Source: Okeania sp. (GTDB lineage Bacteria > Cyanobacteriota > Cyanobacteriia > Cyanobacteriales > Microcoleaceae). From it: a stretch of DNA of 21,703 bases. Both the position numbers and the translations under genes were made by a program. Below, in pieces: positions 3,967 to 21,703 of this stretch (its first letter is position 1; the number at the start of each line of letters is the position of its first letter). The notes below the pieces were generated by a model. That model did no database searches. It had not been told where the DNA came from and saw only the letters and a program-made list of their open reading frames with translations. The stretch lies in assembly GCF_035285525.1 (NCBI RefSeq), contig NZ_JAYKGW010000072.1, forward strand, positions 1-21,703, written 5' to 3'.

Positions 3967-3994
3967 CTATTCCTTTTCGATAGGTTCGCCTACA

Positions 3995-4023: not shown

Positions 4024-4030
4024 TAACAAT

Positions 4031-4158: not shown

Positions 4159-4193
4159 TTCCATATCCTAAATTTACTAATTAAGATAATAGT

Positions 4194-4397: not shown

Positions 4398-4405
4398 TTA
4401 AATAG

Positions 4406-4495: not shown

Positions 4496-4499
4496 TAAC

Positions 4500-4841: not shown

Positions 4842-4844
4842 AGG

Positions 4845-5171
4845 TTAAATCTCCTCATTTTCTCGAATAGCTAACTCAATATCCTGAGAATATACCTCAG
4901 TATAATTCCAAGCATTAACCAGATCCACTGCCTGGAGACTAGGATAGTCTTGCAACAACTCCGACTCACTCACTCCCAAACGACGAGCATTAACTAATAC
5001 CCACACAGGAATGCGAGTACCAGCAATACAAGCATCACCACCACAAACACCGGGAGTTTTTTCGATACCAGACCAAGTATTAGCTAAATTTTGAGTTAAA
5101 AGTTGGATAGCTTGAAATTTTTCTGTCGGAGTTAATGCCAAAAGTTGAGGTTCTAAATCTTTTAATTTCAT
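4845..5171 (-). CDS. DUF433-type antitoxin-like protein (paralog 2, intact)
   Basis: The ATG at 5171 is preceded by AGGAG (ctcaggagtcaactATG). The 108-aa product is MKLKDLEPQLLALTPTEKFQAIQLL...GVCGGDACIAGTRIPVWVLVNARRLG. The ORF-track version (to 5237) adds 22 unlikely N-terminal codons. Confidence 0.8.
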   Translation of the reverse strand: MKLKDLEPQLLALTPTEKFQAIQLLTQNLANTWSGIEKTPGVCGGDACIAGTRIPVWVLVNARRLGVSESELLQDYPSLQAVDLVNAWNYTEVYSQDIELAIRENEEI

Positions 5172-5347
5172 AGTTGACTCCTGAGTATCTACTATTATTT
5201 TATCTATCATATAATTTTCCCCATTAATTAACCACAATACAAAAATACGGCATAGATAATTTAGTCATCTAAAGATAACTTCAGCTATTAGCCAAGGATT
5301 TCAATTATTGGCGAACTTAGTGCATCGGATAGAAAATTATTCAGACA

Positions 5348-6659: not shown

Positions 6660-7055
6660 TCTCCCTTATCTCCCTTGTCCTCCTTATCTCCCTTGTCCTC
6701 CTTATCTCCCTTATCTCCCTTGTCCTCCTTATCTACCTTGTCTCCCTTATCCTCCTTATCTCCCTTATCTCCCTTGTCCTCCTTATCTCCCTTATCTCCC
6801 TTGTCTCCCTTATCTCCCTTATCTCCCTTGTCTCCCTTATCCTCCTTATCTCCCTTATCCTCCTTGTCTCCCTTGTCCTCCTTATCTCCCTTGTCTCCCT
6901 TATCCTCCTTGTCTCCCTTATCTCCCTTATCTCCCTTATCCTCCTTATCCTCCTTGTCTCCCTTATCCTCCTTATCTCCCTTGTCTCCCTTGTCCTCCTT
7001 ATCTCCCTTGTCCTCCTTATCTCCCTTGTCCTCCTTGTCCTCCTTATCTTCCTTC
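6660..7055. repeat. Tandem array of a 9-bp unit TC(TC/CT)CCTT(A/G): 43 clean units plus 1 degenerate unit
   Basis: Units start at 6660+9n and I verified the register at 6732, 7020, 7029 and 7038. Only four unit types occur (tctccctta, tctcccttg, tcctcctta, tcctccttg), apart from one tctaccttg at 6732. The array ends 1-2 nt before the stop codon of the VOC gene (7057-7059). Confidence 0.95.
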
Positions 7056-7056
7056 T

Positions 7057-8073
7057 TTACTTACTAATTAAATTCCAAAAATAACCATCAGGAGCAACAA
7101 AAGAAAAACTCTGTTCCCCAAACTCATTATCAATAATATCTGTAATTTGTATCACTCCTGAATTTTTAATTCGCTCAAAATAATATTCTATATTATTAAC
7201 TCGATAAGTATACAAAGACATTCCTAAACAACCTGGTTGTGACTGATAATAACCAAACTCCAAATTAATATTTTCAGGAAACCGAATAATATACAATCTG
7301 CCAGATCGCGCTTTTTGCCAATCTGTGGAAGAGCGGGGATCGTCAAAAGCAGTCAGTGTAAATTTTTCCCCTGGTTGCAAATCAAAAATTTGTCTCGCTG
7401 CTTCCGAACTTTCATAAGAAGTTTCCGAGTTATCCCGCGATCGCAATAAACCCAACACATCCTCATAAAACTGCAAGGTTTCCTTACTATCATCCTGCAC
7501 TATCATCCCTACATGGGTAAATTGACTGGTTTTGAAAGTGCAATCAGGATTAATTTTGCCATATTCTGGCACTGTATAATTGAAACGTTGAAACAACACC
7601 TGGCGCGTCAATGGTTGCAACAACATCATTTCCCGGACTCCCACTGCGGGATCGATAAATGGGCGACCTTTATCTGTTTTATAAATTATCTCCCACTGGG
7701 GAAAAGTGTATTTGATTGGCAAACCTGCTAACTTGCCATCCTCAGCATGATTAAGAATATTCAAAACATCAGTAGTTAAACTTGTTGCCCAACGGTTGCC
7801 CAAAACTTTCATAGATGTCATTTGTAAACCTTGATTAATAGGTTTTTCCCAAACCATCAGGCGAATTAAACCATGATCGACATTTTGGTGATAGAGTCGA
7901 ATGGAACGCAAATTAGAATTGACTCCATATAAATTTTGAACCGTAGAAGCAGTTAATTCTCCTGTTTTGCCAATGCGATAACCAAATTGTTGCCAATATT
8001 GAATCATTGACAAAGGTTCAGTGGTACCGATACAGACTTCGTAGATACCTTCAATAGTGGGGTTATTATTCAT
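7057..8073 (-). CDS. Two-domain VOC (glyoxalase/bleomycin-resistance/dioxygenase) superfamily protein
   Basis: This is a 338-aa ORF. The second half begins FTHVGMIVQDDSKETLQFYEDVLGLL, a typical VOC beta-alpha-beta start. The first half (IEGIYEVCIGTTEPLSMIQYWQQFGY) looks like a second VOC module. Confidence 0.6.
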   Translation of the reverse strand: MNNNPTIEGIYEVCIGTTEPLSMIQYWQQFGYRIGKTGELTASTVQNLYGVNSNLRSIRLYHQNVDHGLIRLMVWEKPINQGLQMTSMKVLGNRWATSLTTDVLNILNHAEDGKLAGLPIKYTFPQWEIIYKTDKGRPFIDPAVGVREMMLLQPLTRQVLFQRFNYTVPEYGKINPDCTFKTSQFTHVGMIVQDDSKETLQFYEDVLGLLRSRDNSETSYESSEAARQIFDLQPGEKFTLTAFDDPRSSTDWQKARSGRLYIIRFPENINLEFGYYQSQPGCLGMSLYTYRVNNIEYYFERIKNSGVIQITDIIDNEFGEQSFSFVAPDGYFWNLISK

Positions 8074-8302
8074 ATTTTTTATAAATTTTATGGGAATTAG
8101 TTATAATCAAGCCTTAGTTTCTTTTTGGAAGTTTCAGAAGTGTTTCTGCTCTCACAAATTAGGGAGTGGTAGCTAACAACTGATAAAGCCATAATCCCAG
8201 AGTTTGATACTACTAAAAAAATGCTTTTATCCTGTTAAACATAATTCTCTCCTTTAATTTTATTAATGTGAAATAAACATCAATAAATCCGTATATCTGT
8301 TG

Positions 8303-8716
8303 TTAGGCAAAAGGGTTAATAATTCATGTCTTCTGTGCAACCAATTGATTATGCTGCAGATATTCTGAATAGAGAATAGTGCAGTTTTGCAGCAATGCTG
8401 CCCATAAAACTAAACTCTCCCAATCAGAATCACCGTAGTTATTATTAATTTCCAAAGCATTTCAAACAGTTATAGTATCAATTGCCCATACTTAAAAATT
8501 AGTTGAAAGTTCTATGATGATTTGTTTTGCCTCTTGCTAGGTTGTTAAATTCTTTTGAGTTAATACCTTGTAAAGTTCACCCAAAATCCGGGTACTAATG
8601 CTAATATAATCAAAGCGATCGCTGACTAGCTGTCTGGCTTTTGATACTTTATATTGGGGATTTTTAGCATATAAATAAACCCAAACATTAGTATCTATCA
8701 TTACCTTATATATCAT
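8303..8716 (-). pseudogene. PIN-domain (VapC-like) toxin gene with four in-frame nonsense codons
   Basis: I translated a single 138-codon frame by hand: MIYKVMIDTNVWVYLYAKNPQYKVSKARQLVSDRFDYISISTRILGELYKVLTQKNLTT*QEAKQIIIELSTNF*VWAIDTITV*NALEINNNYGDSDWESLVLWAALLQNCTILYSEYLQHNQLVAQKT*IINPFA*. The internal stops are at 8539-8537, 8494-8492, 8464-8462 and 8326-8324. No frameshift is needed to read the whole gene. Confidence 0.7.
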
Positions 8717-8920
8717 ATAATTCTCCCCGGTTAAATTGATAGTTATCTGGCCAAGCAAAAGAATATTCGTCTACTAACTGCCAAAATCTTTCCTTGTTAT
8801 CCTGAATAACATCTGCCTCTACTAAAATAACTTTAAGTTTTTTCCCTCTAATTCTGGACTAAGTTGTTCAGTAAATATCAGATTACCATTTTGACAAGTT
8901 GCTTGTAGAACTTTGTACAT
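8706..8920 (-). pseudogene. Cognate small antitoxin gene with a 1-nt frameshift in an A-run
   Basis: The ATG at 8920 follows AGGAG. Frame 1 gives MYKVLQATCQNGNLIFTEQLSPELEGKNLKLF*. Shifting one nucleotide at gggAAAAAAc (about 8837-8846) restores KKLKVILVEADVIQDNKERFWQLVDEYSFAWPDNYQFNRGELYDI*. That stop overlaps the PIN start (ATGATATATAA). Confidence 0.6.
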
Positions 8921-9055
8921 ATTAATTTACTCCTGCCATAATTTTAATTTTCTCTAACTTTTTAGTACAGTTATAGCCTAACTAATTATTTCATATCCAT
9001 AACACAAAATATAGAAATCCTATTTTATTTGTGTAGAAAAATCCTACTAATTTTA

Positions 9056-9109
9056 GGAAAAAGGGAATAGGGAGAAGTAATTTTTTTCCCCTACTCCCTA
9101 CTCCCTATT
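9056..9109 (-). terminator. Possible intrinsic terminator after the HtrA-like gene
   Basis: On the minus strand AAUAGGGAG (9109-9101) pairs with CUCCCUAUU (9074-9066), followed by CCCUUUUUCC. The loop is long at 26 nt. Confidence 0.4.
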
Positions 9110-9111
9110 TT

Positions 9112-10326
9112 CTAATAATTCATTTGTCCGCTAACAACAAATAACTGCTTTTCTCTACCATTTCGGAGGATTTTAAACTGCAATTTTTCACCTACACCAC
9201 TATTTTCAACTTTCCTCTGTAATTGTTCTGCACTAACTATTGATTGATTATCAATTTCCACAATTACATCTCCTATTCGGATCCCCGATTTTTCTGCTGG
9301 AGTACCAGACAATACTTTAGTAACTAAAACTCCTTCTACCTCTGGCAAAATTAAAACAGAATTAGGGTCACTATTATTTTCTTCAGCAACTTCTGGAGTT
9401 AAACTAATCATCTGAATACCAACAAAAGGATGAGGTACTTGTTCTCCACGAGCTAATACATCTTTAATTTCTTTAGCTTTATTGATAGGAATAGCAAAAC
9501 CAATTCCCATAGCATCAGCTCTAATTGCCGTATTAATTCCTATTACTTCTCCCTGAGAATTTAACAACGGACCCCCAGAATTTCCAGGATTAATTGCTGC
9601 ATCAGTTTGAATAAAATCTAATCTTTTATCAGGGATTCCTACTGCCGAACTAGGGCGTTTCAAACTACTAATAATTCCTAAAGTAACAGTATTATTAAAT
9701 CCTAAAGGATTTCCTACTGCTATTGCCCAATCTCCTACTTGTACTAAATCAGAATTACCTAAAGTTGCTACTGGTAAAATTTCTCCTTTAGTATCAACTT
9801 TAACTACTGCTAAATCTGTAATTTTATCTGTTCCTTTTACTTCTCCAACAAACTTTCTACCATCATTTAAACTAACAGTAACTTTGTCAGCTTCATCTAC
9901 TACATGAGCATTGGTTAAAATTATGCCTTTGGAGTCAATAATAAAACCAGAACCTTCACCTTTTAACAATTCTTGTGAAGGTGCCTGCATCCTGAAGTTA
10001 TTATCAAAAAAACGGTCAAAAAATGGGTCTTCAAAAAAAGCATTATTTGGACGAGTAATTAATCGTTCGGTGTCAATTCTCACTACAGCTAAACCAACTT
10101 TATTAACTGCTTCAGTAACAAAGCTATTACTATTTCTAGTATTAATATTTTCTGGTATAGCTTGCAATGCTAATAACTGAGGATTTGATAATCCGGCAAA
10201 TATTCTTGAAGTTGCCATTGCTGGTGACGTAGTTAAAGAAGCCACCATAAATGTAAAAGCTACAAAAGAGGCCAAAAATTGAGCTGTGATTTTGGTAGTT
10301 ATTCGACAAAAATTTAACAATCTCAT
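9112..10326 (-). CDS. HtrA/Deg (HhoA/HhoB-like) periplasmic serine protease with a PDZ domain
   Basis: This is a 404-aa ORF with a signal-like N-terminus (..FTFMVASLTTSPAMA). The S1C catalytic motifs are TNAHVV, DLAVVKV and GNSGGPLLN. A C-terminal PDZ-like segment is present (GVLVTKVLSGTPAEKSGIRIGDVIVEIDNQ). Confidence 0.9.
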   Translation of the reverse strand: MRLLNFCRITTKITAQFLASFVAFTFMVASLTTSPAMATSRIFAGLSNPQLLALQAIPENINTRNSNSFVTEAVNKVGLAVVRIDTERLITRPNNAFFEDPFFDRFFDNNFRMQAPSQELLKGEGSGFIIDSKGIILTNAHVVDEADKVTVSLNDGRKFVGEVKGTDKITDLAVVKVDTKGEILPVATLGNSDLVQVGDWAIAVGNPLGFNNTVTLGIISSLKRPSSAVGIPDKRLDFIQTDAAINPGNSGGPLLNSQGEVIGINTAIRADAMGIGFAIPINKAKEIKDVLARGEQVPHPFVGIQMISLTPEVAEENNSDPNSVLILPEVEGVLVTKVLSGTPAEKSGIRIGDVIVEIDNQSIVSAEQLQRKVENSGVGEKLQFKILRNGREKQLFVVSGQMNY

Positions 10327-10405
10327 AGTGTTAATATTGGATTGACTAAAGTGGTAAGTTTAGTGTTATAATATCACCAATGGTACAATATTATACTATA
10401 AATTT

Positions 10406-10774
10406 ATGGTAATATCTAATCAACAAAAAAAACAGGCAACTAATCACGAAGTTCAGGAGGATTTCAATTCTGAACATCACCATCATTCTTCTAGTCATCC
10501 TCATGTTCATAGCGAAGAATCTCTACAAAGTTTAATCAATAGATTATCAAGAATTGAAGGACACGTTAGAGGAATTAAAACTATGATTAAAGATAATCGT
10601 CCTTGTCCTGATGTCTTGATACAAATAGCAGCAGTTCGTGGTGCTTTAGACCGAGTAGCTCGCATGGTTTTGGATAATCATTTATCTGATTGTATTGCTC
10701 GGGCAACTCAAGATGGAGATATTGATGTAGAAATTGCTGCTTTAAAGTCAGCTTTAGACAGATTTTTACCTTGA
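10406..10774 (+). CDS. CsoR/RcnR-family metal-sensing repressor with a His-rich N-terminus (InrS-like)
   Basis: This is a 122-aa ORF containing LINRLSRIEGHVRGIKTMI..RPCPDVLIQIAAVRGALDRVARMVL.NHLSDC, with the C...H...C ligand pattern. An N-terminal tract SEHHHHSSSHPHVHSE is present. Confidence 0.85.
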   Translation: MVISNQQKKQATNHEVQEDFNSEHHHHSSSHPHVHSEESLQSLINRLSRIEGHVRGIKTMIKDNRPCPDVLIQIAAVRGALDRVARMVLDNHLSDCIARATQDGDIDVEIAALKSALDRFLP

Positions 10775-11023
10775 GGAAGGAAAAAGTAAGTAAGAAAAAA
10801 AAGACTTCAGTTATTCAGGAGAGAAGAAATAAATATGCTAAGTAGTTGTGCAAAATTACAGCGGATTCTAAGTTTATGTTATATAAATTGTAACACAGCC
10901 TTCTAGGCTGTTATATCTGTACCAGACTAAGATGGAATCCCCTGTAATTGCACATATTTAGAAATATAAATGTATAGTATAAAAGCCAAATACACTTTTA
11001 TAAAATATAGTCAAAAAAAAATT

Positions 11024-11701
11024 ATGTGGAAAAAAATAGCTTTTTGGTTACTTTGGATAGGGTTTGGTGTTTATGCTTTTGTACTTGCTCCACCCGATCA
11101 ACCAGATACTTTAGAATTAATCCAAAAACTCTCAACAGGTGAATGGGAAAATATTAATCCTTTGATTATTTCTCTATTCAATATTATGGGAATTTGGCCG
11201 TTAATTTATAGTTGTTTATTATTCTTTGATGGTAGAGAACAAAAAGTACCAGCATGGTTATTTTCTACTTTATCATTTGGAGTCGGAGCATTTGCGATTT
11301 TACCCTATTTAGGATTGCGTAAACCTAATCCAAATTTTTATGGAAAAAAGAATCTTTGGCTTAATATATTAGACTCTCGAATTTTAGGAATTGCTTTAAC
11401 ATTAGGTACAATTTTATTACTAATATATGGTTTAAAAAATGGCGACTGGGGAGATTTTATTCAACAGTGGCAAAGTAATAGATTTATTCATGTAATGAGT
11501 CTGGATTTTTGTATGTTGTGTTTATTATTTCCTACTCTATTAGGAGATGATATGAACAGACGAGGAATGGAAAAAAATCTCTGGTATTGGATAGCATTAA
11601 TTCCACTTTTAGGTCCGTTAATTTATTTGTCTGTGCGTTCCCCTTTATTAACAACTGATATCTCTACAATATCAGAACAAAAGCAAGTTATTGCCAATTA
11701 A
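11024..11701 (+). CDS. Multi-pass membrane protein of unknown function
   Basis: I prefer the ATG at 11024 (MWKKIAFWLLWIGFGVYAFVLAPP...) to the ORF-track start at 10970. Several hydrophobic segments are present. I cannot name a family. Confidence 0.6.
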   Translation: MWKKIAFWLLWIGFGVYAFVLAPPDQPDTLELIQKLSTGEWENINPLIISLFNIMGIWPLIYSCLLFFDGREQKVPAWLFSTLSFGVGAFAILPYLGLRKPNPNFYGKKNLWLNILDSRILGIALTLGTILLLIYGLKNGDWGDFIQQWQSNRFIHVMSLDFCMLCLLFPTLLGDDMNRRGMEKNLWYWIALIPLLGPLIYLSVRSPLLTTDISTISEQKQVIAN

Positions 11702-11755
11702 TAGGAAGTTCCGAAAAACAGATAAAAACAATTTCCTTTTTGGCAGAACAACCGT

Positions 11756-11783
11756 GTAGGGACGTTCCATGGAACGTCCCTAC
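11756..11783. terminator. 28-nt perfect palindrome between convergent genes (possible bidirectional terminator or dispersed repeat)
   Basis: gtagggacgttccatggaacgtccctac lies between the stop at 11701 (+) and the stop at 11796 (-). It is the same family as the palindrome at 3077-3104. Confidence 0.5.
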
Positions 11784-11795
11784 TTCCTCTATTAT

Positions 11796-12245
11796 TTAAC
11801 CTTTTTCACATTCTCGTTTTGTCACATCATGTCTGTACCGAAACATATCCTCCAGTCGAGAGTCTACCCACCAACCTAAAAAAGATTCTGCTAACCATTC
11901 TCCAGGTAAAGAGAAAGCGATCGCATCGGTTAATCTAGTTTGACCATTTTCCTCACTAAACTGATGACGATGAGTCCAACTTGCCATTGGACCTTCTTTC
12001 TGTTCATCAGTAAACAGATGATATTGTTCATATTCTGTATGTACGGCCACCCACTTCACAGGGATTGGACCGAGCCAAATCATAAATTCTGATAAGGCCC
12101 CTATTTCCAATCCCCCTTGACGACGAATAATTTGGACTGGTTGCCAAGGTGGGGTAAGTATTTGCAGAATATCGGAACGTTCGTGGAATTTCCAAACTGT
12201 CTCCACTGGAGCATTAATTAAAGTTGAATAGCGAAAGTGCAACAT
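11796..12245 (-). CDS. SRPBCC (START/polyketide-cyclase-like) family protein
   Basis: This is a 149-aa ORF. The sequence (MLHFRYSTLINAPVETVWKFHERSDILQILTPPW...WTHRHQF...GQTRLTD) is typical of SRPBCC ligand-binding proteins. Confidence 0.8.
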   Translation of the reverse strand: MLHFRYSTLINAPVETVWKFHERSDILQILTPPWQPVQIIRRQGGLEIGALSEFMIWLGPIPVKWVAVHTEYEQYHLFTDEQKEGPMASWTHRHQFSEENGQTRLTDAIAFSLPGEWLAESFLGWWVDSRLEDMFRYRHDVTKRECEKG

Positions 12246-12309
12246 ATTTAAACCGTTTACTTAATGTCAAAATTATCGTTTTTCTTTACAAATTTACCAA
12301 ACCATTAAC

Positions 12310-12440
12310 AGGACTTACCCATGGGCAAGGCAATTTTTCCGATACGAGCGACAGCGTTTCGCTCCGCGACATGAATGGGTCGCAGTCCGTCAGAATAGCA
12401 ATCTCAAACCCCTATTTTTCCTACCTCATGGGTAAATCCT
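12310..12440. mobile_element. MITE-like element with AGGACTTACCCATG terminal inverted repeats
   Basis: The left arm is aggacttacccatg (12310-12323). The right arm is catgggtaaatcct (12427-12440), matching 13 of 14 positions as an inverted repeat. The element is ~131 bp, non-coding and intergenic. Confidence 0.55.
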
Positions 12441-12510
12441 ATTAAATTTAAAACTAGGCATTTTATTAGGTGAATTTTCATTAGAGTTTACTTGTAGCTT
12501 CCAGCTATTG

Positions 12511-12701
12511 GTAGGGTGCGTTTTGCGTTCCGCAAAGCCGCGACATGAAAAGCGCAGCGTAACGCACCAATACTCTATATATAGTGCCTTTGCGTAATTG
12601 CTTATTAATTATAGGACTTACGCATGAAGCCTATTATTAGAGTGTGTTAGCGGTAGCATAACGCACCGACACGCTATATATGGTGCCTTTGCGTAAGTCC
12701 T
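12511..12701. repeat. Nested dispersed repeats, including an 89-bp MITE-like unit (12613-12701) with AGGACTTACGCA inverted ends
   Basis: aggacttacgca (12613-12624) pairs with tgcgtaagtcct (12690-12701). The block taacgcacc.a.ac.ctatatat.gtgcctttgcgtaa occurs twice, at about 12558-12598 and 12658-12698. A long gggtgcg...cgcacc hairpin lies at about 12514-12568. Confidence 0.6.
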
Positions 12702-12821
12702 GATTACAATTTACATGGCCACATGGAAAACTAGCGATCGCTCTCATCTATGATTGATCAGGGTTTTAGAGTTTTATAGTACACTTGGCAGGGGGAAGTT
12801 CAGATATATGGGATAATAGGC

Positions 12822-12847
12822 GGTGCGTTACATTTCATTAACGCACC
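12822..12847. repeat. ggtgcgtta...taacgcacc hairpin repeat overlapping the radical SAM stop codon
   Basis: ggtgcgttacatttcattaacgcacc has 9-bp arms. The same arm sequence recurs at 6596-6622 and, half of it, in the 12.5-12.7 kb cluster. Confidence 0.7.
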
Positions 12848-14463
12848 CTAAAAACTTCTTCCTTAGCTTCAGCTAAATGTTTTTTCAAAGTTGCCACAGG
12901 TAGAGGACCTTGAATATGATTCCAAGGCAAAGTTTGTTCTAATTCCCAATTATTAAAAACATAAAAATCTAACTCTGGCAACTTCCCATGCAATTCCTTA
13001 AAAGCTCTTTTATAACTACCTAAAGAATCTCCATAATTTCTCACCAATTCTAACAAATAAGATAACCTTCTATCCCCTCTCGAAATTAACCCTTGAATTA
13101 CCGACCATTTATAACTTTCTGGGCGAAAATCTATACCCTTTGAACGTAATTTTTTCTCCAAAAACTTCAATCTTTTTTCTGACTTATCATTTACCCCAAA
13201 CCATTGAAAAGGAGTATGAGATTTCGGCACAAAAGTGCTGCAACCTAAACTTAATCTCAACCCAGGAACAACTTTTTTCAAAGTTAACATCATCTCTACA
13301 GTCACCTCTAAATCTTCTTCCTCTTCTCCAGGTAAACCCACCATTCCATAAAATTTAATCCCTTTCAAACCACCAAGTTTAGCATTAATAGCAGCTTGAA
13401 TAATTTCCTCATTTTCTAACTTTTTATTGATAATTTTCCGGAGGCGATCGCTACCACTTTCCACAGCAATAGTAATTGACTTTGTATCTCGACTAGCTAA
13501 AATTTTTGCCAATTTTTCTGTCACTGTATTGGTTCTAACTGAGGCAATACTCAACCGAATATCATCATATTTTGCTTGGGATAAATAATCTAATAAACTT
13601 TCAAATTCTGGATGTTGAGTTACGGAAGCACCCAATAAACCTAAACGTTTAGTAACAGTTAATCCTCTTTCAATTGCTGGAATTAGAGACCCTTCTAAAC
13701 TAGCAGTTCTAAACGGTAAAGTCAGATAACTTGCCAAACAAAAACGACACATTTCGGGGCAACTTCTGACAACTTCAACCATAAAAATATTTTCCCAAGC
13801 AGCCTTTTCTGTAACCACAGTCGAAGCAGATAAAATATTACTTCGATAAGTTTGTTTTTGCACCACAGGAGGAATATCTTTATCTATAGGTTCAATAGAT
13901 TTAATCGCACCATCATTACTTTCATAAATTACTTCATAAAGACTAGGAATATAAACCCCAGGTACTTGAGCTAAATGTTTTAATTGTTCTAATTTTTCAG
14001 CAGTTCTCACTGTTTTATAATTATCAATAAAATCTGCCAATAAATTTTCCCCATCTCCCAATAAAATCACATCAAAAAAATCAGCAAAAGGTTCTGGATT
14101 AGCTGTTAAAACTGGTCCGCCACCAAATATTATGGGATAGTTTTTTCCCGAACGATTTTTAGTTCTAATCGGAATTTCTAGAGATTCTAAAATAGAGAAA
14201 ATATTGACATAATCAAGTTCCCAAGAAAGAGAAAAACCGAATAATTCTGGTTGTTGTGGCAGAGGTTCATTAATATCAGTAAATAAACGACTAACTTGTA
14301 GATCGGAACGCATTGCTAAAGTTGCCCAAACAATCTGATAACCAAGACTTGTTATTCCCACAGTATATTCATTGGGAAAAGCAAAAATAATTGGAATAGC
14401 ATTAGATTCAGGAATAGCTGGAGTAAAGAGTAAATTTTCAGTATTAAATAAATTATCAGACAT
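12838..14463 (-). CDS. Large radical SAM protein with an N-terminal B12-binding-like region
   Basis: This is a 541-aa ORF. The CX3CX2C cluster motif is VVRSCPEMCRFCLASY. The remainder looks like the conserved ~530-aa cyanobacterial radical SAM family (GGGPVLTANPEP, FYGMVGLPGEEEEDL). Confidence 0.85.
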   Translation of the reverse strand: MSDNLFNTENLLFTPAIPESNAIPIIFAFPNEYTVGITSLGYQIVWATLAMRSDLQVSRLFTDINEPLPQQPELFGFSLSWELDYVNIFSILESLEIPIRTKNRSGKNYPIIFGGGPVLTANPEPFADFFDVILLGDGENLLADFIDNYKTVRTAEKLEQLKHLAQVPGVYIPSLYEVIYESNDGAIKSIEPIDKDIPPVVQKQTYRSNILSASTVVTEKAAWENIFMVEVVRSCPEMCRFCLASYLTLPFRTASLEGSLIPAIERGLTVTKRLGLLGASVTQHPEFESLLDYLSQAKYDDIRLSIASVRTNTVTEKLAKILASRDTKSITIAVESGSDRLRKIINKKLENEEIIQAAINAKLGGLKGIKFYGMVGLPGEEEEDLEVTVEMMLTLKKVVPGLRLSLGCSTFVPKSHTPFQWFGVNDKSEKRLKFLEKKLRSKGIDFRPESYKWSVIQGLISRGDRRLSYLLELVRNYGDSLGSYKRAFKELHGKLPELDFYVFNNWELEQTLPWNHIQGPLPVATLKKHLAEAKEEVFRVR

Positions 14464-14496
14464 ACTTTAACAGTTATCAGTTATCAGTTATTAGTA

Positions 14497-14612
14497 CGCA
14501 AAGAAACCCGGTTTCTCCTAGAAACCGGGTTTCTGGGTTTCCGGGTATTGTAATCCAATCGTAGGGGTTGGCTCTCCAAACCCAATCGTAGGGGTTGGCT
14601 CTCCAAACCCAA
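14497..14612. repeat. Hairpin repeat (gaaacccggtttc type) followed by a 27-bp tandem repeat of about 2.3 copies
   Basis: The hairpin region is gcaaagaaacccggtttctcctagaaaccgggtttct at about 14497-14535. The unit ccaatcgtaggggttggctctccaaac occurs at 14555 and 14582, and a partial third copy follows. Confidence 0.8.
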
Positions 14613-14615
14613 TAG

Positions 14616-14870
14616 CTATTTATATTTAAGTTTAAAAAATAAAATTGGTGAAGCTAAACTCAAGGTCGCAATGTTAGTAAAAATTATCGGTAAATTGTTA
14701 ATAATAATGCCATAAATTATCCATAACAATACACCAGAACAAAAAATAGCAAACATTTCTAAAGAGATGTCTTTTGTCGAACGAGTCCGCCAAGTTTTGA
14801 TAACTTGAGGTAAAAATGAAATAGTTGTGAAAGTACCTGCTAATAGTCCTAAAACTGTTACTAAGTTCAT
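14616..14870 (-). CDS. SemiSWEET (PQ-loop) family transporter
   Basis: I prefer the ATG at 14870 to the TTG at 14882. The product is 84 aa with three hydrophobic helices and the PQ motif (TISFLPQVIKTW). Confidence 0.8.
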   Translation of the reverse strand: MNLVTVLGLLAGTFTTISFLPQVIKTWRTRSTKDISLEMFAIFCSGVLLWIIYGIIINNLPIIFTNIATLSLASPILFFKLKYK

Positions 14871-15002
14871 AAGAAATACCAATAATTGTGATTACTCTAT
14901 AAAATTCTGATAGAGTTTGGAAAATACAGCAGATTACACCTTTTTCATTTTAGTTATTCAGTTATCAGTACCTCCTGGAATAAGGAGGCTTTAAATACAG
15001 AA

Positions 15003-16113
15003 TATTCTTTTTTTATCCTCCTAAAAAAAAGGAGGCTTCAGACCTAAATTTTTCGGTGAAATAAAGCAACGCGGGCAAGATGCCTGCACTAGAAAAATTT
15101 AATTATATCACCTCAGCTTATCTTAGATTAACAGGACTTACGCAAAGAAACCGGGTTTTTAGGATAAATCGTTGTTTTTAACAATAAACATTGACGAAAA
15201 ACCCGGTTTCTAGGTTCGTTTGTGTAAGTCCTAATTAATTTTTTAGATATTTTTTAGCCCAAGCATATCTCCTTTCATCTTTTTTCAGCAAATATTCTAT
15301 AATTTCTCGTCGCTTATTCTTTTTGCTAGTCTCTTGAACTAATCGCTTAATTTCTTTATCAATATCTTCCGTCTTAGCTCCTCTTTTTCGTGCCTCTTCA
15401 AACCAATAATCTCCATCTCCATATTCTCCTAGACCATAACAAATAGCCCCCATTAAAGTACAAGGATGATGACTTTTAGAATCAATTTTATGAGCTTGTA
15501 AAGCCAGATGTTTGCCTTCATTTAATTGGCTAACATCTCTAAAAGCAGCACCTCTAGTTACAAGTATTCTAGCCTTAAGGTCTTTATCTTTTAATTTCTC
15601 TAAATTGACTTTACCTGTGATTTCTAATGCTTTTAATGGTTTCTTTGCCTTGCGCCAATAACTACTAATTTTAGGGATTAGCCATTTATTTTTAGTTCTC
15701 TTAAATTCTTCCTCAAAAAAATCAGCCTCAATCTGATAATAAGTAATGGCAATCTTACTACCAAGATACAGCAAATTCTCAGTTGTTAACTGAGTAAACA
15801 TTAATTTGTCTAATCGCTCTCCTTTATCTAGTCTGCTAAGAATATTGTAGAAAGGATCGAATTTTAATTTCTGGTCTGTAGCTAAATATTTATCTCGGAG
15901 TCTTTTCCAATCTTTATCTTTAGCTATTTTAACAATTTTATTCAAACCATGTGACTTTAACCAATCAATATCTACTTCTATTAACTGAGAAAATTGTTCT
16001 ACTTTTTGGAGAATTTCATACAAATTACTATCAGGTGATGAATCTTCAAACTCAGTAACTTTGTATTTTTTCTTGAGTCGAGTAAACTCTATTTTGTGTT
16101 TTTGTTTATCCGC
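15003..16113. repeat. Segmental duplication, copy 1 (gene tail plus 3' flank; includes the MITE)
   Basis: This segment aligns with 17001-18018 across ~880 nt of coding sequence plus ~115 nt of 3' flank. It contains an identical 73-nt run (15677-15749 = 17570-17642). Confidence 0.85.
15125..15232. mobile_element. ~108-bp MITE inserted 2 nt downstream of the 558-aa gene's stop codon
   Basis: The inverted ends are aggacttacgcaaagaaaccgggttt (15133-) and aaacccggtttc...tttgtgtaagtcct (-15232). The paralogous flank at 17121-17130 (atctt|aattaatt) is an uninterrupted empty site. Confidence 0.7.
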
Positions 16114-16911
16114 AATAGAAAATGTCTCAGTTAGTTTATTTTTTTGTAACCAATCTAACTCTGATTTTTCCAAAATAGTTTCTGTCTCTAGTTTTTTCAA
16201 TATTGAAAATAATTTACTAGAGATAGATTTATCCCAATATTTAGTAGCTTGATACTTATCTTTTAGTTCTGCAAATTTAGCTTCATCCTCTCTTTGTTTT
16301 TGTTTCTTACGCTCCGAATAAATTTCTAGAGTTTCCAAGAAACCATTATTTGATAACCAATTAGATTCTTGCTTATTTAATGTCTCCGCTGAGTCAATTT
16401 TTTTCAGAATACGAAACAATTTATCCGGGAAAAATCTTGATATGTTAGTAGCACGGTATTTAATTTTTAATTTGGCAAATTCTTGGATTTGATTAGCGAT
16501 CGCTAAAGTTTCCTTTAAATTATAATCTTTCAGTAATTTAATTTCTGAATCAGTTAATATATTTTCACTATCAAGTTTCAAAAGTAGCGGATGTAAAAAA
16601 TAAAATCCAAAATTTTTGGGTACTTTGTATCTTGTTTTGAGTTCCAAGAAGTCATATCCTAATCTTTTCAGCTCAGTTTTCTTGTATTGCTTTAAGTTCA
16701 GCTCTAAGTTAATTAGTTTGATAGTTTCAAAAAGTTGATTTGCTTCTAAATATTGAAATTCTATGTCTGTAATTGAAATACCTAAATCAACTCTTCTAAG
16801 TATAAGATATAGAAAGCTTAAAGGAGATGAATTTTGATATTTAGTTGCCTGATACTTAGACTTGAGAAGAGAAAAATGTTGCACCTGAATTTCATGTTCG
16901 TCTTTACCCAT
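15235..16911 (-). CDS. Helical repeat protein of unknown family (about six ~60-aa repeats plus a TPR-like C-terminal cap)
   Basis: This is a 558-aa ORF. A repeated pattern F..LK.KY(x7-12)L(F/Y).IL.K(x6-8)L...(E/D)..WL...(x)L.ET occurs at about aa 13, 88, 145, 213, 275 and 333. The C-terminus has two TPR-like 34-mers (ARILVTRGAAFRDVSQLNEGKHLALQAHKIDSKS / HHPCTLMGAICYGLGEYGDGDYWFEEARKRGAKT). Confidence 0.7.
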   Translation of the reverse strand: MGKDEHEIQVQHFSLLKSKYQATKYQNSSPLSFLYLILRRVDLGISITDIEFQYLEANQLFETIKLINLELNLKQYKKTELKRLGYDFLELKTRYKVPKNFGFYFLHPLLLKLDSENILTDSEIKLLKDYNLKETLAIANQIQEFAKLKIKYRATNISRFFPDKLFRILKKIDSAETLNKQESNWLSNNGFLETLEIYSERKKQKQREDEAKFAELKDKYQATKYWDKSISSKLFSILKKLETETILEKSELDWLQKNKLTETFSIADKQKHKIEFTRLKKKYKVTEFEDSSPDSNLYEILQKVEQFSQLIEVDIDWLKSHGLNKIVKIAKDKDWKRLRDKYLATDQKLKFDPFYNILSRLDKGERLDKLMFTQLTTENLLYLGSKIAITYYQIEADFFEEEFKRTKNKWLIPKISSYWRKAKKPLKALEITGKVNLEKLKDKDLKARILVTRGAAFRDVSQLNEGKHLALQAHKIDSKSHHPCTLMGAICYGLGEYGDGDYWFEEARKRGAKTEDIDKEIKRLVQETSKKNKRREIIEYLLKKDERRYAWAKKYLKN

Positions 16912-17000
16912 AGAAAATAGTTTTTTTTACGAAAAATAACCGATAATTACTTATATTAACCAATTATCATTTCTAACAGAGGCATCCTAACTATTATAGC

Positions 17001-18018
17001 TATTCCTCTTTTTTTATCCTCCTAAAAACAAGGATACTTCAGACCTAAACTTTTGGGTGAAATACACCCACACAGACAAAATACCCGCACTCGAAATATT
17101 TAATTATCTCACCTAAGCTGATCTTAATTAATTTTTTAGATATTCTCTAGCCCAAGCATATTTCCTGTCATCTTTTTTCAGTAGATATTCTATAATTTCT
17201 TTTCGCTTATTATTGTTGCTAGTATCTTGAACTAATCGCTTAATTTCTCGATCAATGTCTTTTATATAAGCTCCTCTTTTTCGCGCCTCTTCAAACCAAT
17301 AATCTCCATCTTGATATTCTCCTAGAGCAAAACAAGTAGTCCCCAATAAAGTACAAGGATGATGACTTTTATAATCAATTTTATGAGCTTGTAAAGCCAG
17401 ATTTTTGGCTTCATTTAAGTTGTAATTATCCCTAAAAGCACCACCTCTAGTTACAAGTATTCTAGCCTTAAGGTCTTGATCCTTTAATTTCTCTAAATTT
17501 ACTTTACTTGTAATTTCTAATGCTTTTAATGGTTCCTCTGCTTTGCACCAATAACTACTAATTTTAGGAATTAGCCATTTATTTTTAGTTCTCTTAAATT
17601 CTTCCTCAAAAAAATCAGCCTCAATCTGATAATAAGTAATGGTAATATTGCTGCTAGGAGTTAGCAAATTCTCAGTTGTTAACTGAGTAAACATTAATTT
17701 GTCTAATTGCTCTCCTCGATCTAGTTTACTAAGAATATTGTAGAAAGGATCGAATTTTAATTTCCGGTCTGTAGCTACATATTTATCTTGGAGTCTTATC
17801 CAATCTGTTTCCAAATATTTGTCTTCAGCTACTTTAATAATTTTAGTCAAATTATATGACTTTAACCAATCAATATCTGCCTTTGTTAGCCGCTCAACTA
17901 CCTCTATTTTTTGGAGAATTTTATACAAATTACTATCAGGTGATGAATCTTCAAATTCAGTCACTTTGTATTTTTCCTTGAGTCTAGTAAACTCTATTTT
18001 ATATTTTTGTTTCTCCGC
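17001..18018. repeat. Segmental duplication, copy 2 (forms the C-terminal third of the P450 fusion ORF plus its 3' flank)
   Basis: See 15003-16113. This copy lacks the MITE. Confidence 0.85.
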
Positions 18019-19416
18019 AATATAGTCTCTTTTTTGTTTTTGTTTCTCCGCAGAAGGCAATATTTCTTCCCCCTGCATACGTTTTCCAGTCATCACCATT
18101 TTTATTCCACCCGCAGGAGATAAAGTTATACTACGACGTTCTGTTTTAACTGGTTGTTTTTCTGCTAAAGCCAAATTATAGCGTCTGAGAATAGTTGCTA
18201 ATACCAGTTTCATTTCAAACATAGCAAACGCTGCTCCAATGCAACGCCGATTACTACCGCCAAAAGGTAAAAATTCGTAAGCAGAATATTGACGTTCTAA
18301 AAATCGTTCTGGTTTAAATTTCTTTGGTTCAGGATACAAATCTTCTCGGTGATGAGTTAAATAAATACAGGGAACTAAACCAGTTCCCGCTGGGTATTCT
18401 TGACCCATTATTGTGATCGGCGATTTTGTTTCTCGTGGAGATGTAATCAATACCACTGGATAAATACGCAGGGATTCACTGCAAACTGCATTCAGATAGG
18501 GTAGTTTCATGATTTCCATTGGGTTGGTATCGTCCCCAATAGTTGCTAATTCTTGTAATAGCTTGTCATAAATTTCTGACTGATGGTGACTCCAGTAAAA
18601 CGCCCAGGCTAAAGCAGTTGCAGTGGTTTCATGTCCTGCCAATAGTAATGTCATCAACTCATCCTGCAATTCTATATCGCTCATACCTTCCCCCGCTTCA
18701 TCCCGTGCTAATAAAAGCATTGTCAAAATATCAGAACGTTCGGGGTCTAAATTTTGACGACGTTCAGAAATTTCTGCACACAGTAACTCGTAAATCTCTT
18801 CCCTTTCTTTGGTAAATTTTCCCCAGGGACTCCAAGTACCTAGACCTATTTGTAGAAACTCGAAAAATAACATACTTGCTTTCGCCGGAGAACTCAATGA
18901 TTCCATAAGTGAACCCAAAAGTCGCTCTAATCTAGAGTACCTTTCTCCTTCATATAAACCGAAAACTGCTTGTAATATTACTTTTAAAGATATCTCTTGA
19001 GTAGATTTTCTCATCGAAAATACCCTATCCACTTGCCACTTGCTAGCTACCTGTTCAGTGATATTACAAATTAACTCTCCATAAGTTTGCATTCGTTCCC
19101 CATGAAAAGGTGGCATCAATAATTGACGTTGACGTTGATGAGGAGTACCATCTAATAATAATAATGAATAATCTCCCAAAAGTGGCTGCAAAAACTTATT
19201 ACCAGAACCACACTCAAACTGTTTTGGGTTAGTCTTGAAAATTTCCTCAATGGCCTTGGGATGGCTGATAAATACCATTGGGTAATTCAAGTTTATTTCA
19301 AATGAGTCTCCATATTGCCTTGCACATTTTTCCATAAATGTCAAGGGTTCAGTCACCCATTGGAAGAGTTGAATCAAACGTGGAGCTTTTGGACCAGGCA
19401 ATTGTGTCATAGTCAT
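17128..19416 (-). CDS. Cytochrome P450 (resembles the Nostocales CYP110 type) fused in frame to a ~296-aa helical-repeat/TPR-like module
   Basis: This is a 762-aa ORF. The P450 motifs are AGHETT (aa 260-265), ESLR (aa 314-317) and FLPFGGSNRRCIG, with Cys392 encoded at 18243-18241. The P450 fold ends near aa 446 (..GGIKMVMTGKR). Residues 467-762 are roughly 80-90% identical (by eye) to aa 267-558 of the neighbouring ORF. Confidence 0.8.
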   Translation of the reverse strand: MTMTQLPGPKAPRLIQLFQWVTEPLTFMEKCARQYGDSFEINLNYPMVFISHPKAIEEIFKTNPKQFECGSGNKFLQPLLGDYSLLLLDGTPHQRQRQLLMPPFHGERMQTYGELICNITEQVASKWQVDRVFSMRKSTQEISLKVILQAVFGLYEGERYSRLERLLGSLMESLSSPAKASMLFFEFLQIGLGTWSPWGKFTKEREEIYELLCAEISERRQNLDPERSDILTMLLLARDEAGEGMSDIELQDELMTLLLAGHETTATALAWAFYWSHHQSEIYDKLLQELATIGDDTNPMEIMKLPYLNAVCSESLRIYPVVLITSPRETKSPITIMGQEYPAGTGLVPCIYLTHHREDLYPEPKKFKPERFLERQYSAYEFLPFGGSNRRCIGAAFAMFEMKLVLATILRRYNLALAEKQPVKTERRSITLSPAGGIKMVMTGKRMQGEEILPSAEKQKQKRDYIAEKQKYKIEFTRLKEKYKVTEFEDSSPDSNLYKILQKIEVVERLTKADIDWLKSYNLTKIIKVAEDKYLETDWIRLQDKYVATDRKLKFDPFYNILSKLDRGEQLDKLMFTQLTTENLLTPSSNITITYYQIEADFFEEEFKRTKNKWLIPKISSYWCKAEEPLKALEITSKVNLEKLKDQDLKARILVTRGGAFRDNYNLNEAKNLALQAHKIDYKSHHPCTLLGTTCFALGEYQDGDYWFEEARKRGAYIKDIDREIKRLVQDTSNNNKRKEIIEYLLKKDDRKYAWAREYLKN

Positions 19417-19926
19417 ATTCTTAATAAGGAAGGGAACAGGGAATAGTTTTGACTATTTGTCACGGACAAATTTTCTGATAGTTAGGGTTTGCTGAAAAAG
19501 TATATATGGGTTAGGGTAGTCTTAAAAGTGAATGGCCATTTGCCATGAAGAATATAAAAGATTATTTATTATAGTGCAATACAGTTTCCTAGGAAATGCT
19601 GCACAAACAGATAATATCAAACCCGCTGGTTACGGTTCCCCATAAATTGGAGAATAAGGTTCTACCATTCCTAGTATGTAGAGGGTAAGGTTCCCGAAAA
19701 ATTGGAGACCAAACCCCTATAGGAAATGAATTTTAACGATACTACCGGATTTGATATAATACCAAAACTCATAAGGTATCTACCTATAAGACTCATGTAC
19801 TTTCCTTCCTTCTGCCTTCTTCCTCCTTCCTTCTTCCTTAACTAAAAGGAATTAACATCGATCCCCGAAGATGTTAAATTGTTCTTTAGCTAAAATAATT
19901 AAAGAGAAAAATATAGGAAAATTGCG

Positions 19927-21703
19927 ATGACTGCAACAACCCCAAAACCAACCACAGTCCCAGATTTTTGCGAAGGTATCCAATACTTCGGAGAAGCTTG
20001 GCCTGATTTTGAGACCCACGGCCAAACACCAGCAATACCAGAAGGTAGTAAAGCGATCGCCTCACCAAGCGATCCGACTGGAGTATATCAAACCCTCCTC
20101 TACGCTGACGCTCTCCGTTATTTAATGCTACAAGTAACAGGCAGCAAAGCATCAGGACACCCAGGCGGTTTTGCTAGTCAAGCTGAAGCTTATGCAGCTT
20201 TAGTAATGTTAGGCTATAAAAACATTCTCACAGAAGTCGGACACCACGCCCCCGGATTTTATAGCGCCGTATTTCTAGATCGCTCCCTAGAAGATATGGA
20301 AATCTTCACAGTCCAACAAATGCGTAGTCGCTTCCGGGAAATGCACGGACTCCTCGGACACCTATCCGGTTATATCCCTGGGTTGCTCAACCCCGCTGGT
20401 CCACTAGGTCAAGGGCAACATTTCGCCATGGCAGCAGCATTATTACATCGCGATACCCTATTTCCTTTCACCATGGGAGACGGTGGCATGGGAGAACCCT
20501 ATCCAGTCAGCAGTATGATGCACTTTAACACTGCCTATCCTGATGTCACTAACTTTTTACCAGTATTAGTGTGGAATGGTTATAGTCAAGAACACCATAG
20601 CATGGTTTCCACTAAAACCAGTGCAGAAATGATTGCTTATTGGAAAGGCAACGGTTTTGCTGAAGTCATCTTAGTAGATGCTAAAGATTTCGACGACAAA
20701 AACCAACCAGGAGACTATGTTGATAGCAGCGCCTTCTCCTTAGAAAAACGTTTGGAGTTTACCAAAGCAGTATTAGAAAATATTGACAAAGCTGCAAAAT
20801 CTGCACTCGGTGGCAAACTCACCATTTTTATTATCAAACAACTCAAAGGTGCAGGGGTTCATGCTAGGGGTTCTAAGTCTCATAACCTTTATCCCAAAGA
20901 CACCCTCGACAGTCCCCAAATTATAAATGCTCTCCAAGAACGCGCCCTACCAGTAGCAGCTTGGGAGTTAGTACGACAAAATTGCGAACGTGCTGGTGGC
21001 GGCCCTGCTGCTAAAACTGTTGTCACTGAATTTGAGTACCCACTAGCAGACTTAGGTGAACTACCTTTAGAAGAATATGCTGTTGGTGGCGATCGTAAAG
21101 TTGCCACAACTGCAATGGGAGAATTAATAGCTTATGTTGGTCAAAAAGACCCTCATTTCCTAGTTACCAATGCAGATGGTAACGCTGCATCAGGTATTAA
21201 TAATATTAACCAAGCATTGAAAATTATTCACCCCACCACAGATGACATTTATTTCCAGGGTCCCAAAGGTCAGGTCTACGAACCTTTGAGCGAAGATGCT
21301 TGTGCTGGTATGGCAGCGGGTTTAGCATTAATGGGAGCGCGGACAGTTTGGTGTTCTTATGAATCTTTTGCGATTAACGGTGTACCTATTTGGCAAACTG
21401 TTACCCAAGCAATGGCAGAATTACGTCATGCTACTCCTTCCACTATTACCTTATTTACTGCCGGAGCATTAGAACAGGGGCGCAATGGTTGGACGCACCA
21501 ACGTCCGGAAATTGAAGCTTATTTTGCAGCGATGCTCCGGAATGGAAATGTGTTCGCTCTGTTCCCACCCGATGCGAATAGTATTCAAGTTTGTTATGAC
21601 TGGGCGTTGACTACTAAAAATAAAGGTGTTACTATTACTGCTAGTAAGTCGCCTTTACCTATTAGAACTACTTTTGAACAAGCAAGACAAGGGTTGCAGG
21701 ATG
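19927..21703 (+). CDS. TPP-dependent enzyme of the phosphoketolase/transketolase superfamily (divergent phosphoketolase-like), 3' end outside the window
   Basis: The ATG is at 19927 and the frame is open to the window end. It is not in the ORF track because it has no stop in the window. The N-terminal part has transketolase-like motifs (YADALRYLMLQVTGSKASGHPGGF, MGDGGMGEP). The middle part aligns by eye with phosphoketolase (GQVYEPLSEDACAG...WCSYESFAI...GRNGWTHQRPE versus XFP GQVVEQLSEH...WSSYESFVH...DHNGFSHQDPG). Confidence 0.75.
   Translation, partial: MTATTPKPTTVPDFCEGIQYFGEAWPDFETHGQTPAIPEGSKAIASPSDPTGVYQTLLYADALRYLMLQVTGSKASGHPGGFASQAEAYAALVMLGYKNILTEVGHHAPGFYSAVFLDRSLEDMEIFTVQQMRSRFREMHGLLGHLSGYIPGLLNPAGPLGQGQHFAMAAALLHRDTLFPFTMGDGGMGEPYPVSSMMHFNTAYPDVTNFLPVLVWNGYSQEHHSMVSTKTSAEMIAYWKGNGFAEVILVDAKDFDDKNQPGDYVDSSAFSLEKRLEFTKAVLENIDKAAKSALGGKLTIFIIKQLKGAGVHARGSKSHNLYPKDTLDSPQIINALQERALPVAAWELVRQNCERAGGGPAAKTVVTEFEYPLADLGELPLEEYAVGGDRKVATTAMGELIAYVGQKDPHFLVTNADGNAASGINNINQALKIIHPTTDDIYFQGPKGQVYEPLSEDACAGMAAGLALMGARTVWCSYESFAINGVPIWQTVTQAMAELRHATPSTITLFTAGALEQGRNGWTHQRPEIEAYFAAMLRNGNVFALFPPDANSIQVCYDWALTTKNKGVTITASKSPLPIRTTFEQARQGLQD

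Follow-up and report, generated by a model that had tools for sequence, protein, structure and literature searches.

Natural fusions of a cytochrome P450 to a C-terminal redox partner are exemplified by P450 BM3 (CYP102A1) and by CYP116B/P450-RhF. We analyzed a contig of Okeania sp. (NZ_JAYKGW010000072.1; 21,703 nt at its full length, called the window below) in which a 762-amino-acid (aa) open reading frame (ORF) at 17128-19416 on the minus strand encodes a P450 and then a helical tail, in one open frame with no intervening stop. The tail resembles the C-terminal part of a 558-aa paralog encoded next to it, and the in-frame fusion of a complete P450 to this module, first noticed from the letters alone in an earlier note, was confirmed here. 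We consider the gene to be probably a real, one-off chimera of a single Okeania lineage, with the tail as a tolerated passenger. The P450 itself resembles the stand-alone CYP110 P450s of filamentous cyanobacteria (PMC7014017, PMC1079853, PMC3411444). CYP110 is the dominant and commonest P450 family of cyanobacteria (PMC7014017) and is largely uncharacterized (PMC7014017, PMC3411444, PMC1079853). Relatives had initially been placed in the Nostocales, which proved wrong, as NCBI assigns Okeania sp. to the Oscillatoriales, family Microcoleaceae.

The fusion gene and its two parts

The P450 part of the fusion (aa 1-455; 18052-19416, minus strand) matched PF00067 (Pfam p450) over aa 8-434 with E=1.5e-81 and 274.9 bits (cut-off 22.8), spanning profile positions 3-454 of 462. 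The I-helix AGHETT, the K-helix ExxR motif ESLR, and the heme-thiolate loop FGGSNRRCIG were all readable in the translation, as originally reported, and all were conserved in an alignment with orthologs. By profile and motifs this part is a complete member of the cytochrome P450 superfamily. It was 75-87% identical to P450s of 457-459 aa from Okeania, Dapis, and Trichodesmium, which terminate with their own stop in ...GKRMQAEKKSPSVATV* (...PSVATV stop). In P450 nomenclature, more than 40% amino-acid identity to named members places a protein in the same family. With 58% identity to P0128, the fusion P450 is CYP110-type by this rule, an assignment that depends on the Joint Genome Institute's (JGI) own label of P0128 ('cytochrome P450 family 110') and not on a curated CYP110 reference. 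NCBI lists the 762-aa product as WP_324236007.1 (cytochrome P450) and the 558-aa protein as WP_324236006.1 (hypothetical protein).

The tail (aa 456-762 plus stop; 17128-18051, minus strand) comprises two helical repeat units of ~70 aa and a C-terminal domain resembling tetratricopeptide repeats (TPR). Its counterpart is the full-length helical-repeat/TPR-like paralog of 558 aa (WP_324236006.1; 15235-16911, minus strand). BLASTP between the tail and the 558-aa ORF gave E=2e-166 with 241/330 identical residues, and in the family alignment the tail shared 76% amino-acid identity with aa 262-558 of the paralog, its C-terminal 297 residues. At the DNA level the two were 88.2% identical over 896 nt; a first estimate of 80-90% was thus right for the DNA and slightly too high for the protein.

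Homology between the two copies continued beyond both stop codons for ~120 nt at 84% identity (15006-15125 vs 17007-17126), close to the ~115 bp initially claimed. Copy 1 of this 3' flank, duplicated with the tail (17004-17127, minus strand), matched positions 10804-10930 of the locus of Dapis sp. BLCC M172 (L003), and copy 2 (15003-15131, minus strand) is continuous with the downstream PQ-loop gene, window 14584-15131 matching L003 10804-11348. The sole interruption of the two-copy flank alignment was a ~100-bp insertion with 20-nt inverted ends (AGGACTTACGCAAAGAAACC...) that resembles a miniature inverted-repeat transposable element (MITE). It occupies 15133-15232, right behind the stop codon of the 558-aa gene, and is missing from the flank of the fusion copy. 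A match to the terminal repeat of this element was found at 12682-12701, downstream of the radical S-adenosylmethionine (SAM) gene, and a relative with 79% identity was present in another cyanobacterial contig (L012 9736-9838).

By its sequence matches the tail is a clear member of an unnamed helical-repeat/TPR-like family of filamentous cyanobacteria. The nearest match was P0001 of Okeania sp. KiyG1 (E=4e-142), with 18 members recovered down to 1e-39, and a family profile found 901 representative proteins at 50% clustering, of which the members listed had 123-730 aa. All named members came from filamentous cyanobacteria (Nostoc, Microcoleus, Kamptonema, Westiellopsis, Anabaena, Pseudanabaena, and Trichocoleus), and databases label them 'hypothetical' or 'tetratricopeptide repeat protein'. 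They share an architecture in which a variable number of ~70-aa units (F..LK.KY....SP.S.LY.IL.K......L...DI.WL) precedes a conserved C-terminal domain of ~200 aa. Family function could not be read from gene neighborhood, as the Pseudanabaena context shares nothing with that of Okeania and gene order varies even within the Okeania/Dapis clade.

Neither the 558-aa paralog nor the tail module had a match beyond noise in Pfam, NCBIfam, PADLOC, or PDB sequences. TPR_2 scored below threshold against the fusion (E=0.64, 10.7 bits, cut-off 27), the paralog had no TPR match, and more distant family members gave sub-threshold or borderline matches to TPR_1, TPR_2, and TPR_8. The AlphaFold model of the 558-aa protein was all-helical, with a mean predicted local distance difference test (pLDDT) score of 88 and values of 88-96 in the C-terminal 150 aa. 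Foldseek against the PDB with this model returned only TPR solenoids (APC/C subunits, designed consensus TPRs, MamA, LbcA, and the AspH TPR domain), the best E values being 2e-3 to 3e-2 with none ≤0.001, and designed consensus TPRs reaching template-modeling (TM) scores of 0.63-0.73 relative to the target. The all-helical model and these matches uphold the initial description of the module as helical and TPR-like; 'TPR-like protein-interaction module' would be a fair description on the model, short of strict TPR membership at the sequence level. Structure prediction of the whole fusion was uninformative (pLDDT 45). Pfam and NCBIfam searches found no flavin mononucleotide (FMN)/flavin adenine dinucleotide (FAD) reductase, 2Fe-2S, ferredoxin, or flavodoxin domain in aa 456-762.

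Source loci and the fusion joint

The window, compared by blastn with loci of relatives, drew on two sources. Positions 18048-21703 matched the phosphoketolase–P450 locus of Okeania and Dapis, with 81-89% nt identity in the P450 and 91-92% on the phosphoketolase side, where the match was to the region upstream of the P450 in L009, L012, L014, L018, and L019. The phosphoketolase-like gene of the window (19927-21703, plus strand; a 600-codon open frame with Pfam XFP and XFP_N) is divergent from the P450, runs off the contig end, and is the conserved native neighbor of the P450 in both genera. This gene also accounts for what had appeared as a 'conserved 1.9-kb non-coding region' upstream of the P450, with no listed ORF and no Rfam or tRNA match. 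Positions 7328-18022 matched the helical-repeat locus of a Microcoleaceae metagenome genome (L001) and of Dapis sp. BLCC M172 (L003); this match was made up of the PQ-loop, radical SAM, and downstream genes to about 16950 and of the tail with its flank at 17004-18022. The switch between source loci fell at about 18022-18048, the 3' end of the P450.

On the minus strand the genes of the window follow one another as the 762-aa ORF (19416-17128), the 558-aa ORF (16911-15235), an 88-aa PQ-loop protein (14882-14616), and a radical SAM protein (14463-12838), the last two (12838-14882, minus strand) being syntenic with the helical-repeat locus of relatives. In those relatives a second tandem P450 or Usp genes, and never a helical tail, came after the P450, and the helical-repeat gene was flanked by PQ-loop, FAA-hydrolase, psb, or other genes. 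The second P450, at about 66-67% nt identity to the first (L007 2132-3514; L006 1804-2376; L009, L012, L014, and L018), was present in most relatives and missing from the window. As judged from these matches, the window brings together two loci that are not adjacent in relatives. The orthologous P450 of Okeania sp. SIO2F4 (L019) was itself broken by an insertion.

The joint lies at CCT TCT | GCG (Pro454 Ser455 | Ala456; 18049-18057, minus strand), and in the DNA CCTTCT|GCGGAG the P450 homology ends at TCTG and the helical-gene homology begins at GCGGAG. The native P450 3' end reads CCTTCTGTGGCAACTGTATAG, with the variants CCTTCTGTGGC(A/G)ACTGT(A/G)TA(G/A) in L014 and L090. At the matching site the unfused helical-repeat gene reads TTTTCCGTTGCAGAGAAA, and TTTTCTATTGCGGATAAA in the window's own paralog, following the pattern TTTTC(C/T)(G/A)TTGC(A/G)GA(G/T)AAA. 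The fusion reads CCTTCTGCGGAGAAA across the joint, which in protein becomes ...GKRMQGEEILPS|AEKQKQKRDYIAEKQKYKIEF... (...PS|AEKQ), with the joint-spanning peptide ...GEEILPSAEKQK.... At the break the parents share only the short imperfect homology TTCYRTKGC (about 5-10 nt), which is what illegitimate recombination would leave. The joint keeps the frame and costs the P450 just its last four codons (VATV) with the stop. In the helical-repeat gene the break falls within a K/Q/E-rich linker just before a repeat unit, where the AlphaFold model of the paralog has a long helix from residue 261; because the break is at a repeat boundary, the tail should be able to fold.

Immediately downstream of the joint the linker carries a 33-nt tandem doubling (17986-18051, minus strand) that encodes AEKQKQKRDYI-AEKQKYK and holds the 15-mer GCGGAGAAACAAAAA at 18037-18051 and 18004-18018. 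Two copies 33 nt apart, plus a diverged copy in the paralog with one mismatch (16099-16113), had been pointed out from the sequence, and they are far beyond chance, with three matches in 0/100 shuffles. Their interpretation as a recombination or slippage scar did not survive: the same 33-nt doubling (AEKQKQKRDDIAEKQKQKR, encoding FSVAEKQKQKRDDIAEKQKQKREF) recurs in P0017/L089, a gene of Okeania sp. SIO3H1 that is not fused, so it is not a scar of the fusion. Its occurrence there identifies the doubling as a pre-existing linker length variant of the gene family.

We found no second fusion of this kind in the collections searched. The tail alone recovered 18 proteins of 223-550 aa, 0 with a P450 domain, and none of the best 120 P450 homologs (374-470 aa) carried a tail, in databases that hold one representative per cluster, so that rare other fusions could be hidden in the way that our own sits behind a 117-aa representative. 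The 13 closest P450 loci in species-representative genomes ended in native stops or were pseudogenes, none of them fused. When searched against the loci of relatives, the tail matched helical-repeat loci only; in JGI metagenome contigs both a degenerate joint pattern and the tail protein were without match. A description of a P450–TPR fusion was likewise not found in the literature, where coverage was incomplete and the evidence is weak. The closest P450 relative was a 527-bp ENA contig (L090; 93% nt identity, synonymous divergence (dS) of 0.17), which ends in ...EEEKISPSVATV*. Positions 1-50 of L090 look like a Nextera adapter (AGATGTGTATAAGAGACAG), and the record is of low quality at its 5' end.

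Among the genomes, metagenomes, and protein clusters searched, the fusion is a singleton on one Okeania contig. The earlier note knew of no P450 family with such a module, and none turned up in the protein, locus, metagenome, or literature searches. The outcome is essentially the one that the earlier note had named as refuting its proposal, with the stop kept in close relatives and a fusion in this assembly only, and it removes any claim that the fusion is conserved; the tail module, however, is not found beside the P450 in relatives at all. Other apparent cases were rejected. Matches of ~3 kb that suggested a P450 adjoining a tail elsewhere proved to be tandem P450 paralogs or an interrupted P450 pseudogene; an apparent read-through in Okeania hirsuta (query residues 1-478) was low-complexity AGGCAGA repeat sequence; and a TPR protein upstream of the P450 in Okeania SIO1I7 was unrelated to the tail.

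Selection, origin, and competing explanations

The ratio of nonsynonymous to synonymous substitution rates (omega) of the P450 part was 0.21-0.24 against seven orthologs. Its own branch carried 19 synonymous and 24 nonsynonymous substitutions, and that of the nearest full-length ortholog a similar 12 and 13. By this pattern the P450 part is under purifying selection and the enzyme looks alive. The helical-repeat family gave pairwise omega values of 0.5-0.7 for every pair within the Okeania/Dapis clade. On the tail's own branch we counted 9 synonymous and 33 nonsynonymous substitutions, with omega at about 0.88 (p=0.43 vs neutral), the highest of the four lineages compared, and changes had occurred at three positions that do not vary among the other 17 aligned members of the family (R572Q, R626C, and A695T). 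The tail's own branch looks nearly neutral, with no clear sign of selection. This, together with the singleton distribution, is why we favor a real one-off chimera whose tail is a tolerated passenger.

Several points weigh against that explanation. The 307-codon frame of the tail had acquired no stop and no frameshift despite about 44 lineage-specific substitutions, and in a neutral simulation with 44 random substitutions the frame stayed stop-free in only 2-5.5% of trials (P=0.02-0.055). The tail also keeps 75/81 family-conserved columns, and for the rearrangements themselves both order and number are inferred. The open frame and the conserved columns fit two situations: the tail is under selection, or the fusion is young and most of the substitutions arose before it. 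Since the nearest unfused P450 is still dS 0.17 away, the fusion cannot be dated before or after most of the tail substitutions.

The open frame and conserved positions would also fit a functional new domain, in which the tail is kept as a binding surface for the P450, whether for a protein or peptide substrate, for an electron donor, or for co-assembly with the 558-aa paralog or its partners. The module should fold, being cut at a repeat boundary, the TPR folds retrieved by Foldseek include an AspH domain crystallized with its substrate peptide, and the intact paralog next door offers a like-for-like interaction partner. We judge this unlikely, given a tail branch with 33 nonsynonymous to 9 synonymous changes, the alteration of three family-invariant residues, the absence of the fusion from the other collections searched, and the unfused state of the closest P450 relatives. 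The family is moreover decaying in sister genomes: a ~150-bp insertion truncates the gene of L001 (~11545-11690), two in-frame stops interrupt that of L003 (~9960 and ~10735), and P0001 of Okeania sp. KiyG1 has a C-terminal frameshift, while both window copies are intact. The scaffold, localization, or presenting roles first suggested for the tail are weakened by the near-neutral substitution pattern. We are more doubtful of the specific proposal that the TPR-like tail, as a young functional invention, tethers the CYP110 enzyme to the partner or the homo-oligomer of the 558-aa paralog encoded just downstream, and so directs the P450 to a particular protein or peptide substrate, complex, or cellular site.

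That the P450|tail joint or the tandem tails are a chimera of reads from different loci or strains, in a metagenome-derived or draft assembly, appears improbable. The window is the whole 21.7-kb contig of an unclassified 'Okeania sp.' record, the fusion is known from this one contig only, and a ~1-kb repeat (88% identity) and remnants of mobile elements occur in the region, all of which would suit such an error. The joint, however, does not fall at a repeat common to the source loci, and the homology of about 5-10 nt is too short to mislead a k-mer assembler. It is also exactly in frame and at an inter-repeat linker, the sequences on either side of it stand at a similar distance (about 82-92% nt) from the reference genomes of Okeania and Dapis, and the tail copies differ by 12% and would not collapse or cross-assemble.

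The two copies in the window differ from each other by a dS of 0.16, compared with 0.15-0.21 to the orthologs in L001 (Microcoleaceae) and L003 (Dapis), and informative quartet sites (9/13/6) gave no support for the window copies as sisters. As the tail copies are as diverged as orthologs in other genera and the flank is only 84% identical, the duplication is old. There are two novel joints, P450|tail at about 18051 and 3' flank|558-aa gene upstream region at about 17004/16956; one tandem duplication makes one such joint, so at least two events are needed. A simple duplication of tail plus flank is thereby displaced by the joining of two loci, with copies no closer than orthologs. The 73-nt identical run between the copies (17570-17642 = 15677-15749, minus strand; encoding ITYYQIEADFFEEEFKRTKNKWL) was exact as reported and is the longest exact block common to both. 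Here both copies read FFEEEFKRTKNKW (FFEEEF), and orthologs of the Okeania/Dapis clade have FFEKEF or FFEDEF. A short gene-conversion tract at this run is plausible from the shared states; the idea of a recent duplication that was then homogenized is contradicted. The earlier model as a whole, a recent tandem duplication of tail and flank followed by gene conversion with the doubled 15-mer as its scar, is highly improbable, for while the tail and flank homology is real and the states that the two window copies share and the Okeania/Dapis-clade orthologs lack fit local conversion, the copies stand as far apart as orthologs of other genera, a single tandem duplication cannot make both joints, the P450 side comes from a different ancestral locus, and the doubled 15-mer is present in an unfused gene.

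For a real one-off chimera with a passenger tail, we propose the following course. An older duplication would have produced two tandem helical-repeat/TPR-like genes, both followed by a 3' flank, with the PQ-loop and radical SAM genes downstream of the pair. Illegitimate recombination at very short imperfect homology (TTCTG..GC) would then have brought in the phosphoketolase–P450 locus; the joint is observed, and the mechanism may have been an inversion, a deletion, or a translocation that connected the 3' end of the P450 to the upstream copy's linker. This event would have cut the P450 four codons short of its stop and continued it, with the frame kept, at about codon 262 in the upstream helical-repeat copy. 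The predicted product is an intact CYP110-type P450 of 455 aa, a charged linker, two helical repeat units, and a TPR-like end domain. By comparison with known bacterial P450s, the P450 is presumably an ordinary enzyme using separate electron-transfer partners. The tail, going by the model of the paralog, would fold as an independent helical module and may keep the binding properties of the 558-aa protein.

Gene order around the helical-repeat gene differed among relatives. In L001 the gene lies between the PQ-loop and radical SAM genes, in L089 it comes after both (PQ–radical SAM–helical), and in the window and L003 it precedes them (helical–PQ–radical SAM). The short region of the helical-repeat, PQ-loop, and radical SAM genes (window 14616-16911) appears to be locally prone to duplication and rearrangement, and the helical-repeat gene has evidently been shuffled and duplicated locally over a long time. 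Dapis has an additional PQ-loop fragment upstream. Between genomes the helical-repeat gene (window 15235-18051) had a dS of only 0.15-0.21 with omega at 0.5-0.7, and neighboring genes (window 9112-14882) had a dS of 0.25-1.0 with omega at 0.08-0.27 at similar overall DNA identity. These odd values could stem from recent exchange between lineages or from constraint at the nucleotide level.

Elsewhere in the window, a perfect 27-nt tandem repeat (2.2 copies, CCAATCGTAGGGGTTGGCTCTCCAAAC) occupies 14555-14613 in the spacer between the PQ-loop and radical SAM genes. A long tandem array at 6660-7054, strongly skewed in GC and AT, consists of 9/18/27/45-nt repeats (CCTTATCTCCCTTATCCT, about 22 copies); it overlaps a 145-aa plus-strand ORF whose only Pfam match was spurious. 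Mobile or addiction-type genes lie at 2511-6247, encoding a Phd/YefM-like antitoxin (2511-2924), a DUF433 protein (4845-5237), and a PD-(D/E)XK family transposase-like protein (5348-6247). The ORF at 1-1696 (minus strand) runs off the contig start and encodes TPR_12-like repeats of 42 aa (126 nt; LNNLAGLY.SQGRYEAAEPLYQQAIEIDK...), in tandem at 794-1380 with 92% identity between copies. This TPR protein is separate from and unrelated to the fusion.

Comparison with known systems

As the evidence stands, the fusion is a curiosity rather than a new enzyme class: it is known from one draft contig, and its tail shows no sign of selection. If the junction were confirmed, it would offer a cleanly dissectable case of bacterial gene birth by fusion, with both parents known, the break resolved to the nucleotide, the donor paralog adjoining, and unfused relatives at hand for comparison. 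If the tether proposal were true, a fused protein-interaction domain, instead of a redox partner, would determine the specificity or location of a P450. The wider helical/TPR-like family, with about 900 clusters, is arguably the more general question.

Compared with stand-alone CYP110 P450s, the fusion P450 has the same complete domain and signature motifs and, as in Okeania and Dapis, a divergent phosphoketolase neighbor. Instead of the native stop it has a 307-aa helical/TPR-like extension, and it is without the downstream tandem P450. The relation to the helical-repeat/TPR-like family (WP_324236006.1; NPM_5912 of Nostoc sp. N6; members in Microcoleus, Kamptonema, and Pseudanabaena) is the converse. 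The tail has the same C-terminal domain, with the pattern ...SSYW(R)KA..P..AL..T...LVTRGGAFRD...HHP.TL.G..C...G.Y..GDYWFEEA.KRGA..., and in the fusion the P450 takes the place of the N-terminal 261 residues, whereas the proteins of the family stand alone, at about 300-730 aa and with 1-6 repeat units at the N-terminus, none of those examined having a catalytic domain.

For an adaptive role of the tail, the closest analogy would be AspH (PDB 5jqy and 6q9f, both Foldseek matches), which likewise combines an oxygenase and a TPR-type domain in one polypeptide and whose TPR domain was crystallized with substrate peptide. AspH is a 2-oxoglutarate oxygenase with an N-terminal TPR domain in a conserved architecture, and its likeness to the tail is that of a generic TPR fold only (TM-scores 0.19-0.25). 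P450s of the BM3 and CYP116B type share with the fusion the layout of a soluble bacterial P450 with a C-terminal module on a flexible charged linker, and BM3 heme domains were among the PDB matches. Their module is a redox module in a conserved family, in contrast to a singleton whose tail is without FMN, FAD, Fe-S, or flavodoxin domains; because the tail has no redox domain, the fusion cannot be self-sufficient and does not belong to the CYP102/CYP116B class. On its sequence, it is a natural P450 fusion with an unusual, non-redox partner, which, if confirmed, would add a protein-interaction module to the natural C-terminal partners of P450s and be of some interest for engineering P450 fusions and scaffolds.

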